40,723 nt of DNA from assembly GCA_045636665.1 (NCBI GenBank), contig JAZTXY010000138.1, positions 1 to 40,723 of the forward strand. Reading direction: 5' to 3'. This stretch comes from Eubacteriales bacterium (GTDB taxonomy: Bacteria; Bacillota; Clostridia; Oscillospirales; CAG-382). Of the stretch, positions 21,001 through 27,000 are shown in pieces (position 1 is the first letter of the stretch; every line of letters starts with the position of its first letter). Position numbers: made by a program.

Positions 21001-24000
21001 TCGAACAAAATCTTCAATATCAAATCTCGCGCGATGACGAATCGATGAGAATGCTCGAGCTTATTAACCAAAACCGCGTTCCCGACCTTTCGGAAATGTA
21101 CCGTTGGGGTGCAATGATGCAAACCATCGCTGATTTGCGTACCGCACCTGTCGGCACCTTCGTTTCGGCTTACGATGCAATCGATGAACAAACCATTCTC
21201 GAAATCGAAGCAACTGTCGAAAAGTTCAAGAGCAGCCAAAAATAAACGCATTAAGAGGACGGATACACCGTCCTCTTTCTTTTTTGTTCGTTCGAAAAAA
21301 TAAAACGGCACCCGAAAGTGCCGTTTTTTTATTGCTTGTGCGATATGCGCCGTTATGCAAGCACGATGCAATCAACCGAAGAATAATCGATGCAGATTGC
21401 AAAAAATCGAATGACGCTGCATTTCGCCCCAAAAACGACAAGCGTTTTCGGGGACCCCATGACCTACTGCGAGGATGCCGATTTTTTATAGCATAAATTT
21501 TAATTTATGTGTTCTGCGCTATTATGCATACATTTTGAGTGCGCGGCAGAACGGATGCAGATTGCGCAAACGCAAGCGCAGCTGTAGAAACCTACTGCAA
21601 GCGCGCGTTTGTGCGATATGCGCCGTTATGCAAGCACGATCTCCTTGCCCTGTTCGGAGGAGTCATACATAGCCTGCATCATAGTTGCGGTGATGATTGC
21701 CTTGTCGATGTGAGAAGGAAGCTTTTCGCCGGTCTTGATGCAACGGATGAAGGAATCGATTTCGTTCTGGAACATTGCGTTCGCCTTGAACTTGGGCTTG
21801 AATTCGATAAGAGTATCGCAGGAGGTGGTATACATGGTGAAGTCGCCGCCGTAGGTAAGACGGATACCTGCCTTGGTACCGATAAAGTCGATAAAGGTTT
21901 CTTGGATACCGATGTTTTGTGCCCAAGCGCCGTTGAAGGTAATGGTGGGACCTTCGGTACGAACGAAGCCGGTAACGAAGTCGTCAACGTCGTAAACGCC
22001 GTTGAGGTCCTTGGTATCTTCAGACCACATGCCGTTGTAAACGTAGTTAGGCATATCTACGCCGAGCTTGGAGAAAGCTTTTGCGGAAACGGTGAGAGGC
22101 TTGGGGTCATCGGTACAGTACATAACGATGTCGAGGTAGTGAACGCCCCAGTCGATAAGAACGCCGCCGCCTGCAATGGATTTATCGGTGAATGCACCGC
22201 CGAGGCCGGGGATGGAGCGATGAGCGCGGAAGCTTACGTAAACGTGGTAAACTTCGCCAAGCTCGCCTGCTTGAATAAGCTCGCGAACCTTATTAACTGC
22301 TGCATTGAAGCGGTTAACAACGCCGATATTGAGAACCTTGCCGGTTACGTGCTGTGCTTTTTGCATTTCAAGAGCTTCGGGAAGAGTTCTTGCAGAAGGC
22401 TTTTCGCAAAGAACGTTCTTGCCTGCTTTGAGGAAGTCGATGGTAATGGTGCTGTGCATTTTGTTGGGGGTACAAACCGAAACTGCTTCGATTTCGGGGT
22501 CGTTAAGGATATCGTGATAATCCTCAACAGCAGTACCGCAACCGTACTTTTCAACAGCTGCTTCTGCTTTAGACTTGATAACGTCGCAGAAATACTTAAT
22601 TTCTACTTCTTCGTTTGCCATATACGCGGGGATGTGCGCGCTGTTGGCGATGGTACCGCAACCGATAATTGCGATCTTCATTTTAGACATAATACTTTCC
22701 TCCGAAATTTATGTTTTAAAGGATATTGGCATATCACCAAATAGTTACTCTTATATTACCATAAAGAATTCTCTTTTTCAATAGATTTTTCCAACAAAAC
22801 TCAAAAAAACACTTGACACAACCGCACTTTATGTTTATACTAATGTAACAAAAGCTATGAAGGGGACAAAGCGTCCGATTTTTCACTTTTCAGAGAGCCG
22901 TCGTTTGGTGCGAGACGGTAGGTGTTGCGGATTGTGAACTCACCCCGGAGCTGCCGTTCCGAGGATTTTTTTCGTTAGGTTCGGTCGGGTTTCTCGCCGT
23001 TATCAGGAGAGCGCGCTGTTTGGCGTTGCGATGATAATATTGATTTACCCATGCTCGGTCTATGCTTTTTGCTTTGACCGAGTTTTTTTATTCTTTATTA
23101 TCCCATAAGGAGCAAACACAATGAAATTATCCTTCTCAACACTTGCCTGCCCCGAATACAGCTTTTCGGATATGTACGCTATGGCGAAGGACCTTGGATT
23201 TGACGGTATCGAGGTGCGCGGCCTTGGCAACGATATATTTGACAACAAGCACAATATGCCCTTTTCAAGCGCAAACATCGCCGAAACGGCAAAAATGCTT
23301 AAATCTGTCGGATTGGAAATTTCGATTCTTTCGTCCGACTGCTGCTTGAGATACAAGGAGCTTGCCGACGAAAACAAAAAAATCGTTTCGGAATATATTC
23401 AAGCGGCAAAGGCATTGGGCACGAAATACGTGCGCGTGCTCGGTGACGACGGCCCCGCCCCCACCGACGGCGGCAACGATGAAGAGGTTATACGTCAGCT
23501 TTTGGACCTCACCCCCGTTGCGGAAGAAGCGGGTGTTACGCTTCTTATCGAAACGAACGGTGTTTACAGCGATACCGCGCGTCTTAAATCTCTGCTCGAT
23601 AATATCCACAGCGACAACGTAGCCGTACTTTGGGATATTCACCACCCCTACCGCTTTATGCACGAATCGCCCGAGCAAACCGTTCAGAATTTGGGTATGT
23701 ATATCGCGCACGTTCATATTAAGGACAGCATCGAAGAAGACGGCGAAATCCTTTACAAGCTTATGGGCGAAGGCGATATGCCGATAGAGGATATGATAAA
23801 CGCTTTGCGCTCGATCAATTTCGAGGGTTATCTTTCGCTTGAATGGGTTAAGCGCTGGGCTCCTTATTTGCAGGATGCGGGTATTATCTTCCCCAACTAT
23901 ATCAACTATATGAGCGCATTTACGGGAAGAAGAAGCGGAAGCGATACGCTTATCGACGACCTTCGCGGAAACGGCAAGTATATTTGGCAAAAGAATATGC

Positions 24001-27000
24001 TTATCGACCTCACCTTCCCCCAAGTGCTCGACCGTGTTTGCGAAGCATTCCCCGACCAATATGCATTCCGTTTCACCGAATGCGATTACACCCGTACCTA
24101 TCCCCAATTCCGCGATGACGTTGACAGATTCGCACGCGCGTTGATATCGCTCGGCGTTAAACGCGGCGACCACGTTGCGGTTTGGTCGACAAACCTGCCG
24201 CAGTGGTATATTGCTTTCTGGGCAACCACAAAAATCGGCGCGGTTTTGGTTACCGCAAACACCGCTTATAAAATTTACGAAATCGAATATCTGCTCCGTC
24301 AGTCCGACACTCACACGCTTATTATGTGCGACGGATATAAGGACAGCGATTACAACGCTATTATTCACGAGCTTTGTCCCGAATTGAACGAGCATCAAGC
24401 GGGCAAGCCGCTTTACACAAAGCGTCTTCCCTTCCTTCGCAACGTAATTACGCTGCAAAGCGAACAAAAGGGCTGTCTTACTTGGGATGCCGCGCTTGAA
24501 TATGCCGAAAACACCCCGATTGAAGAGGTTTACCGCCGCGCATCGCTTATAAGCAAGCACGACGTTTGCAATATGCAATACACCTCGGGCACAACGGGAT
24601 TCCCCAAGGGCGTTATGCTCACCCACTACAACGTTGTTAACAACGGCAAAAACATCGGCGACGGTATGGACCTTTCGTCCGCAGACCGTATGATGATTCA
24701 AGTGCCGATGTTCCACTGCTTCGGTATGGTGCTTGCGATGACCGCATCGGTCACCCACGGCGTAACGATGTCGCCGCTTTCCTATTTTTCACCGAAGCGC
24801 GCGCTTGATTGCATCAACAAGGAAAAAATCACCTGCTTCCACGGTGTGCCGACAATGTTTATTGCGTTGCTCGAAAACGAAAAGTTCAAGGACACCGATT
24901 TTTCACATATGCGTACGGGCATTATGGCAGGCTCGCCTTGTCCCGTTAAGGTAATGCAGGACGTTGTCGAAAAGATGAATATGTCCGAAATCACCATCGT
25001 TTACGGTCAGACCGAGGCTTCGCCCGGATGTACTATGAGTCTTACCACCGACAGTCTTGAGGCGCGTGTTAACACGGTTGGCGGCGCGATGTTCGGCGTT
25101 GAATGCAAAATCGTCGACCCCGAAACGGGCGAAGAGCTTCCCAACAACGTCGACGGCGAATTTGTCGCACGCGGATATAACATAATGAAGGGTTATTATA
25201 AAATGCCCCAAGCGACCGCGCTTGCTATCGACGAAAACGGCTGGCTTCACACGGGCGACCTTGCAAGAAAGACCGACGAGGGTTATTTCAAGATAACCGG
25301 CAGAATAAAGGATATGATCATCCGCGGCGGCGAAAACATTTACCCCAAGGAAATCGAGGACTTTATTTACACCCACGAAAAGGTAAAGGACGTTCAGGTC
25401 ATCGGCGTTCCCGACGTTCAGTACGGCGAGGAAATTATGGCTTGGATAGTACCCAAGGAGGGCGAAACCATTACCGAGGACGAAATTAAAACCTACGTCA
25501 AGGAGCATATGGCGAAGCACAAAACACCCAAATACGTTAAGTTTGTAAGCGAGTTCCCGATGAACGCGGCAGGCAAGATACTTAAGTACAAGATGCGCGA
25601 AATGTCGGTCGAGGAGCTTAACCTTAAAAAGGCGGCTTCGATTGAAACGGCGTAAGTTAATTTAAGGATATAAAAGGATAGTGCGAGAAAAAACTTTTAA
25701 AAAAGTCTTTTCTCGCGCTCTTTTTCAAAAGCTTTTAATAAATTTGTTCAATAATAGCAATAGCTTAAAATCTTGACACAAATTAAGGTTTGTGTTAATC
25801 TAAACAGGTAAGAACTGTATTTACAGGAGTAATTTTATGAACGGAAGAAAGATTTTTGACGACATAACAAAGGCGGGCTTTGACTGCGCGTTGTTTCTTG
25901 ACGAAAACAGTCAATACTATTTAAGCGATTTTTACACCACCGACGGCGCGGTTATCGTTGCTAAGGACGAAACGGCGTTATTGACCGATTCGCGCTATAT
26001 CGAAGCGGCGGAAAACGACAAAAAGGCGGGCAAGCTATCACCCGACGTCAGCCCTTACCTTTTCAAAAAGGGACTTTATCCCGATATTGCCGATTATTTT
26101 GCGAATATAAACGCAAAAAAGGTTGCGCTTGACCCTGCACTCGTTACGATAAAGCAGCTTCAGACGCTTAACAAGCTTTGCGAGGGGGTTGAATTCGGTT
26201 ATATTTCCGACGTTTGCCTTAAGCACAGACAGGTAAAGACTGCCGAAGAGGTTGAAAAGATTCGCCGCGCGCAGAGCATTACCGACAAGGCTTTTTCGCA
26301 CATTTTGGGCTTCATCAACGGTGACAGAACCGAGCTTGAAGTTGCCGCAGAGCTTGAATATTTTATGCGCTCGAACGGTGCGAACGGATTGGCGTTTGAC
26401 ACCATTGCCGTTTCGGGCAAAAATTCCTCGCTTCCCCACGGTGTGCCGACCGATGCGAAGCTGACACAAAATTCCTTTTTCACAATGGACTACGGCGCGA
26501 AATTTGCAGGTTATTGCTCGGATATGACGAGAACCGTCGTTTTGGGCAAGGCAGACGACGAAATGAAGCGTATTTACAACACCGTTCTTACCGCGCAATC
26601 CGAGGCGATGAAATATATTCGCGCAGGCGTTACCGGCAAGGAAGCCGACAAGGTCGCGCGCGACGTTATTACCGATGCGGGCTACGGAGCATATTTCGGT
26701 CACTCCTTGGGACATTCGTTGGGACTTGAAATTCACGAGCTTCCCTCGGTATCGCCCAAGAGCGAGGCTGTTTTGGTTGAAGGCAACATTGTAACCGTTG
26801 AGCCGGGCATTTACATCCCCGGAAAATACGGTGTGAGAATCGAAAATATGGTGCTTGTTACCGAAAACGGTTGCATTAACCTTACAAACAGTGAAAGACA
26901 GTTGATTGAACTTTAAAATAGGGCTTGACAAAAAGCGTTCTATAATATAAAATAAATTAGATATAATATTTTGTCTTAAAAATAGGACATAAATCAGGAG

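Follow-up and report, generated by a model that had tools for sequence, protein, structure and literature searches.

Introduction

The closest described system to the leader analysed here is the canonical class I T-box (RF00230), which is transcriptional and contains Stem II; its nearest examples are the Leu(CUC) leaders of five orthologs (L059, L061, L066, L121 and L181) and of one LeuA-like operon in the genus of the window (L195). For Stem II-type T-boxes, the role of the F-box and pseudoknot has been described, and the pseudoknot is reported to be required for tRNA binding (PMC7583486). Translational ileS-type T-boxes of Actinobacteria, described in the same source (PMC7583486), are likewise reduced or remodelled while keeping Stem II and the pseudoknot. 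Their discriminator is complete, however, UGGN included, and their target is the ribosome-binding site, whereas in the present leader the discriminator is missing and any control would be exerted at a terminator. For the product of the regulated gene, the functionally nearest described enzyme is MbcS of Staphylococcus aureus, a short branched-chain acyl-CoA synthetase (PMC10026030, PMC11167679).

The window, a stretch of 40,723 nucleotides of contig JAZTXY010000138.1 from an Eubacteriales bacterium, contains a leader that keeps the tRNA-reading half of a T-box, without the usual check of tRNA charge, in front of a gene for a fused enzyme, which poses a testable question of control.

A leucine T-box leader without a discriminator

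Analysis of the window confirmed a T-box-type leader at 22848-23089 of the + strand, with the leucine specifier CUC, a promoter and an intrinsic terminator. The features of the leader and its gene are the following.

22813-22818 and 22836-22841, + strand: −35 and −10 hexamers of a sigma-70-type promoter with a 17-nt spacer, read from the sequence
22853-22952, + strand: Stem I, with K-turn base, AGAGA bulge, distal loop and specifier loop (Rfam alignment, RNAalifold)
22946-22952, + strand: 3′ strand of the Stem I base (K-turn strand), candidate 5′ strand of helix AT* (sliding scan)
22953-22985, + strand: Stem II, with GA...AGUA motifs of the S-turn type (Rfam alignment)
22986-23010, + strand: Stem IIA/B pseudoknot (IIA and F-box by Rfam, IIB by order-wide co-change)
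23011-23029, + strand: hairpin X, six base pairs and a six-base loop, U-G/A-N-N-N-G (covariation, relatives)
23032-23050, + strand: lineage-specific Y strand (MFE folds, duplex energies, conservation)
23053-23089, + strand: intrinsic terminator, with 5′ strand 23053-23060, 3′ strand 23076-23083 and U-run 23083-23089
23107-23112, + strand: Shine-Dalgarno sequence of the regulated gene, read from the sequence, its position kept among genus upstream regions
23121-25655, + strand: 844-aa fusion gene (Pfam, NCBIfam, PDB sequence search, N-terminal domain alignment)
23181-23855, + strand: xylose-isomerase-like TIM barrel, AP_endonuc_2 (PF01261), aa 21-245 (Pfam)
24030-25577, + strand: ANL-type acyl-CoA ligase, AMP-binding aa 304-693 and AMP-binding_C aa 744-819 (Pfam)

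A profile search matched the Rfam T-box RF00230 to positions 22848-23021 of the + strand at 69.9 bits (E 1.3e-14), which falls below the gathering score of 93 for this family and compares with 93-125 bits in canonical relatives; upstream of the match, both promoter hexamers are kept in the alignment of genus upstream regions. Like a canonical class I T-box, the leader has a promoter, Stem I with K-turn, AG bulge, distal loop and CUC, Stem II, the pseudoknot with its F-box and a following hairpin, and it shares with its canonical Leu(CUC) relatives an intrinsic terminator, the gene family and the tRNA. The Rfam alignment extended over Stems I, II and IIA, the F-box included, but passed over those positions of the model that stand for Stem III and the antiterminator, so that the normal Stem I to Stem III of a preliminary description of this DNA held for the first two stems and not for the third. 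Unlike canonical class I T-boxes, the leader between 22848 and 23089 contained no UGGNACC T-box bulge, a lack which that description had rightly recognised, no Stem III purine motif (RRRxG-Stem III-AA) and no A1/A2 antiterminator. The loss of the motif is specific to the CUC leader, because all three other T-box matches of the same genome (pheS, a PALP/TrpB-like gene and thrS) are canonical and carry the GGUGGNACC motif. The tRNA-Leu(GAG) previously placed on contig C86 was located at c[74704,74786], and its discriminator base is A73.

The specifier loop of Stem I reads GAA-CUC-A, with CUC at 22939-22941, and the GA/K-turn was seen in the Rfam alignment. RNAalifold analysis of 25 genus leaders, all of the variant type, gave 44 pairs with compensatory changes in 26, and CUC was unchanged in 25 of 25. 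By RNAalifold and pair counts in these leaders, many compensatory pairs fell in Stem I, and the basal pairs of Stem II covaried, as did those of the terminator, whose hairpin with U7 is worth −13.8 kcal/mol. Within the pseudoknot, IIA is CGG/CCG, the F-box CCGUUA occupies 22997-23002 and the IIB strand GAGA occupies 23007-23010. Across the order, the IIA loop and the strand after the F-box changed jointly when 32 stretches were compared by eye, giving about 12 different pairings as counted by eye, with at least four Watson-Crick pairs in 30 of the 32 and one G-U pair needed in the other two. Because the structure has been kept through compensatory changes since the discriminator was lost, the decoding half is probably still under selection in this lineage and tRNA reading is probably still in use.

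Origin and distribution of the variant form

The association of this gene family with a Leu T-box, as had been claimed, is kept across the order, in ortholog leaders, metagenome-assembled genomes (MAGs), the genera of the family and the paralog operon. Among 20 ortholog leaders from other genera and families, 14 were T-boxes, eight of them above the Rfam gathering score, and they have the UGGUACC motif. Of 77 upstream regions taken from named public MAGs, 24 matched an HMM of the 5′ domain and 22 of these 24 had UGGNACC, the two without it being from the genus of the window. Within the family, one genus was canonical (89-116 bits) and four were variant (42-81 bits, no UGGN). Because orthologs in other families and the paralog operon of the same genus have canonical Leu(CUC) T-boxes, these comparisons indicate that the form of the leader is a derived state confined to its family.

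Two sister-genus leaders have lost Stem I while keeping the F-box, hairpin X, the Y strand and the terminator before an intact gene, so the 3′ part can persist without tRNA reading, and four of 20 upstream regions in the same family lacked a recognisable leader RNA. One further match to this 3′ module, of different sequence, was seen in a genome that has no ortholog.

The fusion gene and leucine supply

Homologs of the fusion gene were found in 52 of 61 genomes of the genus (E<=1e-50) and in 122 of 201 genomes of the order (E<=1e-100). The ligase resembles PRK12583 of the ANL superfamily ('fatty acid CoA ligase family') in having AMP-binding and AMP-binding_C over the full profile, and PRK12583 was the top NCBIfam match; unlike ligases of that type, the protein scored 691 bits against a cut-off of 832, has an N-terminal TIM barrel and is under Leu T-box control. 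The adenylation motifs are visible in the translation, and the closest solved ligases are 8weu, 8wev and 4gxq/4fuq, in agreement with the preliminary description. The barrel resembles xylose-isomerase-like TIM barrels of PF01261 (ketose 3-epimerases, hydroxypyruvate isomerase, 2-oxo-tetronate isomerase) by Pfam domain match, but differs from the named subfamilies in matching them weakly (17-47 bits against cut-offs of 200-465) and in being fused to a ligase; its top PDB sequence match was an uncharacterised protein (E 3e-6). Most orthologs in the alignment retain the acidic and histidine positions E144, D172, H198/H200 and E241, which are presumably metal ligands.

Leu T-boxes precede both gene lineages, the orthologs and the paralogs. 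As previously claimed, a paralog lies directly 3′ of a LeuA-like gene; in one genome it is also 5′ of a PFOR-type oxidoreductase, and the genome of the window encodes 2-oxoacid:ferredoxin oxidoreductase genes and a LeuA-type gene. A predicted role of the fusion gene in leucine supply is well supported, and its product most likely activates a short, probably branched-chain, carboxylic acid to the CoA ester. Isovalerate as the substrate is only a guess, and the gene context would fit isobutyrate or another short acid equally well.

Two conserved complementarities in the place of the discriminator

In the leader of the window, and not in its canonical relatives, one strand is the complement of the pseudoknot region, and the 5′ strand of the terminator is that of the Stem I base. 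These complementarities, Y and AT*, appear to stand in the place of the discriminator, on the basis of conserved complementarity and not of covariation.

A sliding scan over the full length of the leader gave the 3′ strand of the Stem I base as the top partner for the terminator 5′ strand (23053-23060), the candidate 3′ strand of AT*, with means of −10.2 kcal/mol and z −2.5 over 25 leaders. The duplex reached −15 to −17.5 kcal/mol in one genus subgroup and in a second genus, each with its own extension. When the terminator 3′ strand was omitted, AT* was present in the MFE structure of 12 of 25 full leaders and of 20 of 25 folded from the specifier on, as well as in four of eight variant leaders of other genera and in none of 11 canonical leaders. 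In the AT* register 66.9% of cells were paired, compared with 24-36% in slid registers. None of the 11 AT* pairs showed a compensatory change, shuffles matched the observed pairing, and the core joins the K-turn GAGC to the GC-rich terminator base, two motifs whose conservation has other causes in each case. AT* is weak in the leader of the window itself (six pairs and a bulge, −7.9 kcal/mol, z −0.1) and was absent from the MFE structure of the full leader without the terminator 3′ strand, and in another genus it was strong as a duplex yet missing from the full-length MFE structure in at least three leaders (four computed).

The Y strand lies where canonical relatives have Stem III and the T-box sequence, and its blocks 23032-23038, 23041-23043 and 23047-23050 are complementary to the F-box, the IIA loop and 3′ strand, and the IIA 5′ strand (22987-23005). 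This complementarity was seen in the MFE folds of 29 leaders, with a duplex energy of about −13 kcal/mol, and the strand has a column identity of 0.88 compared with 0.44 in the adjacent linker. Against dinucleotide shuffles, the mean z was −2.5 in nine close relatives and +0.06 in 11 canonical controls; it was about −1.1 in two other variant lineages, a modest support beyond the close relatives. From its complementarity, the Y strand would be able to unzip the pseudoknot.

Proposed switch and alternative explanations

Our best explanation, a tentative one put somewhat short of an even chance, is that the leader is a T-box for tRNA-Leu(GAG) without a discriminator, its expression platform rebuilt from existing parts, in front of a gene for leucine supply. 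The decoding half (Stem I with CUC, Stem II, the IIA/B pseudoknot and the following hairpin) has been kept, probably in working order, and the discriminator (the Stem III purine motif, the UGGN bulge and helices A1 and A2) has been lost, probably in one event, within one family of gut Clostridia. Since the leader ends in a terminator, the gene is expressed by read-through only. The retained GCUCU, which serves as the terminator 5′ strand and would correspond to the old A1 3′ strand, could now form AT* with the 3′ strand at the base of Stem I itself, and the new Y strand could open the pseudoknot to give a long hairpin, which with AT* and Stem II would make a compact three-way junction that excludes the terminator. 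Binding of tRNA would shift the balance between junction and terminator, and the customary pairing with the CCA end of the tRNA would play no part. The anatomy, the absence of the discriminator as a derived state, the lasting structural conservation of the decoding half and both complementarities are shown, whereas we infer that the AT* and Y pairings form in the cell and come under tRNA control, in one direction or the other. A point against such a switch is that AT* and the long hairpin would take apart the K-turn base and the pseudoknot. Because they would dismantle the pseudoknot that tRNA binding is reported to need (PMC7583486), bound tRNA would, on the most direct structural reading, promote termination, the opposite of what a gene for leucine supply calls for. 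The leader showed no site for the 3′ end of the tRNA, and charge sensing thus lacks an explanation in the model.

If that most direct reading is followed, the three-way junction would be the default read-through state and tRNA-Leu would lock the K-turn base and pseudoknot, promoting termination. All competitors for the terminator 5′ strand (the Stem I base, the AG bulge and IIB) belong to the tRNA-binding fold, and tRNA binding is reported to require the pseudoknot (PMC7583486); nevertheless, the orthologs and the paralog operon are canonical and on with uncharged tRNA, an inverted response would be physiologically odd, and a leader lacking a 3′-end sensor would give no report of leucine at all, so that we regard this reading as distinctly unlikely. 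A better chance, though still a minority one, belongs to a T-box in decay, a constitutive, somewhat leaky attenuator in which bound tRNA no longer alters termination and the complementarities are by-products. No antiterminator has covariation support, terminators are weaker in the variants (median about −14 compared with −19 kcal/mol in canonical leaders, several assignments being wrong), and decay has gone further elsewhere in the family, in the leaders without Stem I and the regions without leader RNA. Decay would leave unexplained why Stem I, Stem II, the pseudoknot motifs and CUC are kept with compensatory changes in leaders that postdate the loss, including species whose proteins are only 70% identical, and why the sequence of Y is conserved when the neighbouring linker is not.

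The preliminary description, whose interpretation overall is partly supported, had taken GAGAGC paired with GCUC as a substitute A1 helix and an extra hairpin as offering UGG to the tRNA CCA end, a structural reading that proved largely wrong and that we now consider very improbable. In 13 of 19 close relatives the purine strand could pair with the terminator 5′ strand at −8 to −9 kcal/mol, and UGG is frequent in the hairpin loop within this genus, but the duplex has a mean z of only −0.7. GAGAGC is the IIB strand, which canonical relatives have besides their own T-box sequence and which covaries by eye with the IIA loop; the covariation partner of its final GC is the 3′ tail of the next hairpin, changes to AC, AA and GU being unmatched in GCUC, and use of the IIB strand would again need an opened pseudoknot. 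That hairpin, X, with compensatory changes in four of five pairs scored in the 25 genus leaders, is not extra: it occurs in the canonical leaders L066, L061, L121 and L181 and the L195 upstream region, and within the genus and order of the window, canonical Leu T-boxes have it after the pseudoknot and before the Stem III purine motif. The loop UGG is missing in at least nine variant leaders (L025, L026, L029, the G044 leader, L175, L176, L178, L187 and L190), and where found it occurs in two registers, followed by C, G or A and not by the U that would pair with A73. Also improbable, if less so, is that an RNA-binding protein or some other factor reads the 3′ module (F-box helix, hairpin X, Y and terminator), with the T-box half as an independent or residual input. 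The module lacks both a conserved internal loop and a candidate partner gene, was matched in 16 of 151 genomes, never more than once in each and beside this gene where the two positions were compared, and has neighbouring genes unrelated to RNA binding; in favour of such a factor, the two leaders without Stem I still have the module before intact genes, and Y and the terminator 5′ strand and loop are conserved beyond the needs of a plain terminator.

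Anatomy of the leader

The leader upstream of the fusion gene matched the Rfam T-box family (RF00230) with 69.9 bits (E 1.3e-14), which, as the preliminary description had stated, lies under the gathering score of 93. The Rfam alignment spans Stem I, Stem II and Stem IIA with the F-box CCGUUA, and it includes the Stem I features of a T-box, namely the GA/K-turn, the AGAGA bulge, the distal loop and the specifier loop GAA-CUC-A. Stem II and the Stem IIA/B pseudoknot with its F-box are also present, as judged from this alignment and from co-change of IIA and IIB. The elements of the leader and its gene are as follows.

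22813-22841 (+): promoter with -35 and -10 elements at 17-nt spacing, conserved in the genus
22848-23021 (+): RF00230 match
22946-22952 (+): 3' strand of the Stem I base (K-turn strand)
23011-23029 (+): six-pair hairpin, here called hairpin X
23032-23050 (+): strand Y, complementary to the pseudoknot region
23053-23089 (+): intrinsic terminator, a hairpin followed by seven U's, as in T-boxes
23121-25655 (+): fusion gene

The preliminary description had read a normal Stem I to Stem III; Stem I and Stem II hold in the Rfam alignment, and the alignment passes over those of Stem III and the antiterminator in the model. Stem III of T-boxes is flanked by a purine string RRRxG ... AA (excerpts of PMC7583486), which is absent from the window leader, while canonical relatives, defined here as leaders with the UGGN discriminator, carry GAGUG or AAGUG, Stem III and AA. 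The motif UGGNACC was not found within window 22848-23120, as noted previously, and neither the A1 and A2 helices, nor a site for the acceptor end of the tRNA, nor a classical antiterminator was found in the window leader. The sole candidate competitor is a different helix that involves the base of Stem I (AT*). Inspection by eye revealed no convincing site for pairing between the leader and tRNA-Leu outside the anticodon.

The genome is a MAG of 1.8 Mb that is 80% complete, and its three other T-box matches, upstream of pheS, a PALP/TrpB-like gene and thrS, all contain the canonical GGUGGNACC, indicating that the missing motif is a property of the window leader and not of the organism. The cognate tRNA-Leu(GAG) noted previously on contig C86 is encoded there at c[74704,74786] with A73 and CCA; the canonical relatives carry UGGU at the start of the 7-nt bulge, in which N pairs with the discriminator base of the tRNA.

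The purine strand and the neighboring hairpin

Two elements that had been proposed to replace the discriminator proved to be shared with canonical leaders. The strand GAGAGC, previously placed in the position of the T-box sequence, is strand IIB of the standard pseudoknot, because the IIA loop changes along with it across the order. At least four Watson-Crick pairs between the purine strand and the IIA loop were counted by eye, without a shuffle control, in 30 of 32 stretches; the other two need one G-U, and about 12 different pairings occur among the 32. The last two bases of GAGAGC covary with the 3' tail of hairpin X. The IIA hairpin, F-box and purine strand of the window leader recur in canonical leaders, which additionally have their own Stem III and T-box sequence downstream.

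The hairpin that had been called extra, hairpin X, is likewise found in canonical Leu T-boxes, one of them in the same genus. Its six pairs close a loop of the form U-G/A-N-N-N-G, and in canonical leaders it follows the pseudoknot and comes before the GAGUG-type purine string on the 5' side of Stem III. The UGG noted earlier in this loop is missing from at least nine variant leaders, that is, T-box-type leaders without the UGGN discriminator; where present, it takes either of two registers, and the next base is C, G or A instead of the A73-matching U. These findings leave very little probability for a substitute discriminator built from GAGAGC and UGG. In the canonical Leu T-boxes of five relatives (the upstream regions of loci L061, L066, L121, L181 and L195), hairpin X lies outside the Rfam consensus. 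It could be characteristic of Leu T-boxes in this clade, conceivably contacting the long variable arm of tRNA-Leu.

Loss of the discriminator among relatives

Comparison of upstream regions of orthologs and paralogs, fetched in the genus, family and order, confirmed that the pairing of a Leu T-box with this gene extends across the order. In other families, 14 of 20 ortholog leaders are T-boxes, eight of them at or above the gathering score (maximum 124.5 bits), and the orthologous proteins are 66-73% identical. Among named public MAGs, an HMM of the 5' domain matched 24 of 77 upstream regions; UGGNACC was present in 22 of these 24, and the two leaders lacking it are both from the window's genus. 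The other 53 regions had no T-box 5' domain by HMM, including that of the sole cultured species, Ruminococcus flavefaciens strain Y1 (L173), and thus Leu T-box control of the fusion gene is common, not general. The leaders of the family itself fall into several states.

Leader types upstream of the fusion gene within the family
One genus: canonical leader, 89-116 bits
Four genera, including that of the window: variant leader, 42-81 bits, no UGGN
Two sister-genus leaders (L177, L055): Stem I and Stem II lost, intact orthologs downstream
4 of 20 regions: no recognisable leader RNA

Because outgroups have the canonical form, the variant leader is derived; that several genera have the derived sequence in common argues for a single loss. 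Judged against the list of discriminator parts in excerpts of PMC7583486, the window leader has lost the purine string, Stem III, the UGGNACC bulge and helix A2 relative to its canonical relatives. In our reading, the ACC and a CUCU-type strand would be remnants of the old platform, the strand being the former 3' half of A1; this CUCU-type strand now begins the 5' strand of the terminator. The two sister-genus leaders that lack Stem I and Stem II retain the promoter, the F-box, a hairpin and a strand that complements the F-box, and their terminator is strong (-12 to -18 kcal/mol).

A strict pattern search of 151 family genomes found the variant module in 16, at most once per genome and at the fusion gene where its position was checked. 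The sole match away from the fusion gene (G059:C4:25993-26051 (-), in a genome without an ortholog) begins like an F-box and then diverges in sequence. The abstracts and excerpts consulted, including those of PMC7778990 and PMC7583486, did not describe any T-box that lacks the T-box sequence.

Selection on the decoding half

Among 25 genus leaders, all of the variant type, compensatory changes were found in 26 of 44 predicted pairs, spread over Stem I, the Stem II base, hairpin X and the terminator. The CUC specifier, correctly described before as conserved, and the T-box-specific loop motifs are invariant across all 25. These species differ down to 70% protein identity, and the linker 3' of the hairpin has drifted to a column identity of 0.44, so plain decay does not explain the leader. 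The pattern of substitutions indicates that the decoding half is still under selection.

Complementarities in the 3' half

Strand Y has a column identity of 0.88, on par with functional T-box motifs, and is complementary in three blocks to the F-box, to the IIA loop and 3' strand, and to the IIA 5' strand. The long hairpin formed by Y and the pseudoknot region appeared in the MFE folds of all 29 leaders, with a duplex energy of about -13 kcal/mol. Relative to dinucleotide shuffles, the mean z was -2.5 for nine close relatives, about -1.1 for two other variant lineages and +0.06 for eleven canonical leaders. For the F-box against the downstream region alone, p was about 0.04-0.1 per sequence, with several regex mis-hits. 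In one genus subgroup with a different F-box, the pairing partner differs to match, as seen by eye. Because Y pairs with the strands of the pseudoknot, the long hairpin and the pseudoknot are mutually exclusive.

Other roles for this region were considered and rejected. Against Y as an antiterminator, shuffled sequences pair better than Y with each half of the terminator (mean z of Y +0.66 and +0.83), and folds of Y with the terminator 5' half gave 0 to -7 kcal/mol and no common helix. A leader peptide beginning in Y, assessed by eye, lacks a start codon in 3 of 25 leaders, shifts frame and meets a stop at codon 6 in three. An internal promoter at TGATAAT, noticed by eye, would start transcription 5' of the terminator and explain nothing. 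Truncated folds contained no antiterminator within the 3' domain.

In a column-wise scan of the whole leader, the best partner of the terminator 5' strand was the 3' strand of the Stem I base. This candidate helix, AT*, has a mean duplex energy of -10.2 kcal/mol and a mean z of -2.5 over 25 leaders, compared with a mean z of +0.2 for canonical controls. It comprises 11 pairs in one genus subgroup (-15 to -17.5 kcal/mol, z about -3.4), 8 pairs plus 4 more in a sister genus (-16 to -17 kcal/mol) and 7 pairs in another genus and one close relative, and is extended on a different side in each lineage. Its occurrence in MFE folds was scored with the terminator 3' strand omitted.

Leaders with AT* in the MFE fold, terminator 3' strand omitted
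Full genus leaders: 12 of 25
Genus leaders, fold starting at the specifier: 20 of 25
Variant leaders of other genera, fold starting at the specifier: 4 of 8
Canonical leaders: 0 of 11

At full length and again without the terminator 3' strand, the variant leaders of other genera had no AT* pairs in the four cases listed, those of the sister genus included. AT* is weak in the window's own leader (-7.9 kcal/mol, z -0.1) and absent from its full-length MFE fold. A covariation test found no compensatory change in AT*, and the two motifs joined in its core each have other reasons to be conserved. In the AT* register 66.9% of cells were paired, compared with 24-36% in slid registers, and shuffles did equally well.

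Jointly, the conserved complementarities of Y and AT* provide an alternative fold to the terminator. This fold is predicted to be a nested three-way junction, with Stem II and the long hairpin inside the loop closed by AT* and linkers of 0-2 nt between the helices, and this geometry points to a role for Y in placing the terminator 5' strand beside its partner. All structures described here are derived from thermodynamic folding and from comparing related genomes that are not independent of one another.

Models for control of termination

What defines the T-box mechanism is base pairing between the UGGN bulge and the CCA end of the tRNA. A decoding half long selected without that bulge suggests that tRNA controls termination in another way or that the leader is retained for another reason; the former, if true, would add a second mechanism that links tRNA binding to transcription. 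That the leader is a functional, rebuilt switch has a chance somewhat short of even. Such a switch would require that the three-way junction forms in the cell and that tRNA shifts the balance between junction and terminator. The junction, made of the Stem I basal strand, the anti-pseudoknot strand Y and the terminator 5' strand, would dismantle the competing core, namely the K-turn base and the IIA/B pseudoknot. In Stem II-type T-boxes, the pseudoknot is needed for tRNA binding and a hairpin in its place restores most binding, according to the excerpts of PMC7583486. The long hairpin may stand in for the pseudoknot, with tRNA clamping the junction, which would give a normal response without a visible check on charging. 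We tentatively propose, as one possible reading, a T-box-derived riboswitch without an acceptor-end sensor, in which tRNA-Leu would govern termination through the choice between core and junction and the uncharacterised enzyme would feed short branched acids to leucine in Clostridia of gut and rumen.

The leader could instead be a leaky relic of a decayed T-box, which we consider rather unlikely since compensatory pairs and the invariant CUC persist in variant leaders. Alternatively, tRNA could lock the classical fold and so favor termination; such an inverted response would be odd for a gene whose relatives turn on with uncharged tRNA, and we regard it as improbable. Action of another factor on the 3' module is more improbable still.

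The fusion gene and its pathway

As described previously, the 844-aa product joins a xylose-isomerase-like TIM barrel (aa 21-245) to a full ANL acyl-CoA-ligase module (aa 304-819). The ligase matches PF00501 with 313.8 bits over profile positions 2-384 of 384 and PF13193 with 68.2 bits; it matched no named equivalog or substrate class, every NCBIfam match being under its cut-off, and the nearest solved ligases do, as reported before, have different named substrates, with no close relative among them. The TIM barrel matches PF01261 with 111.2 bits (Pfam cut-off 31.1). It falls in no characterised epimerase or isomerase subfamily, the best match reaching 46.9 bits against a cut-off of 305, with weak matches to ketose epimerases and to hydroxypyruvate and oxo-tetronate isomerases. 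Its conserved E/D/H/E positions are kept in orthologs, and three conserved positions are changed in one paralog of the same genus (L195:8628-11102, after a LeuA-like gene), namely D172->N, H200->R and E241->A in window numbering (comparison with window 23121-23975); the R. flavefaciens ortholog has Q in place of the His. These replacements raise the possibility of an inactive TIM half in some lineages.

The gene is solitary, with a GFO/IDH/MocA oxidoreductase gene upstream on the opposite strand and pepP and efp downstream. Leu specifiers precede both lineages of the fusion: CUC was read by eye in all 13 readable order leaders and in the 11 family leaders inspected, and CUG in two public MAG leaders. 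A paralog 53-57% identical does lie, as noted earlier, directly after a LeuA-like gene (HMGL-like plus LeuA_dimer), and this operon had a canonical Leu CUC T-box in both cases examined. In one homolog set, none of 20 regions of 450 nt upstream matched a T-box, which does not speak against a Leu T-box because these 450 nt fall inside the LeuA-like gene in the two cases examined. At L196:6191-13967, a Leu(CUC) T-box precedes a LeuA-like gene, the TIM/ligase fusion and a single-chain PFOR-type oxidoreductase (1167 aa), an order that looks like a compact module for conversion of a carboxylic acid to a 2-oxo acid. The window's genome contains one LeuA-type gene and three POR_N-type oxidoreductase genes. 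Gene context thus fits a route from acid to acyl-CoA, by reductive carboxylation to a 2-oxo acid and on to leucine, and isovalerate (directly) and isobutyrate (via LeuA) would fit equally well.

Leu T-boxes precede the TIM/ligase fusion in many gut and rumen Clostridia, with more than 600 matching stretches in species genomes. Anaerobes have an old route, described in the classical rumen literature, from volatile fatty acids to branched-chain amino acids, for which, to our knowledge, genes have not been assigned; the fusion enzyme may be part of it. The abstracts and excerpts consulted contained no description or assignment of the fusion gene.

Other features of the window

Two ORFs, at 20073-21371 (-) and 27800-28378 (-), had no Pfam match, and a 672-aa ORF at 29948-31966 (-) contains a partial glycosyl hydrolase family 26 domain. 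Adjacent tRNA-Glu(UUC) and tRNA-Met(CAU) genes lie at 37702-37855 (-) according to ARAGORN, both classed as tRNA by Rfam. A SAM riboswitch (RF00162) is located at 38010-38110 (+), with a score of 74.8 bits, above its gathering score.
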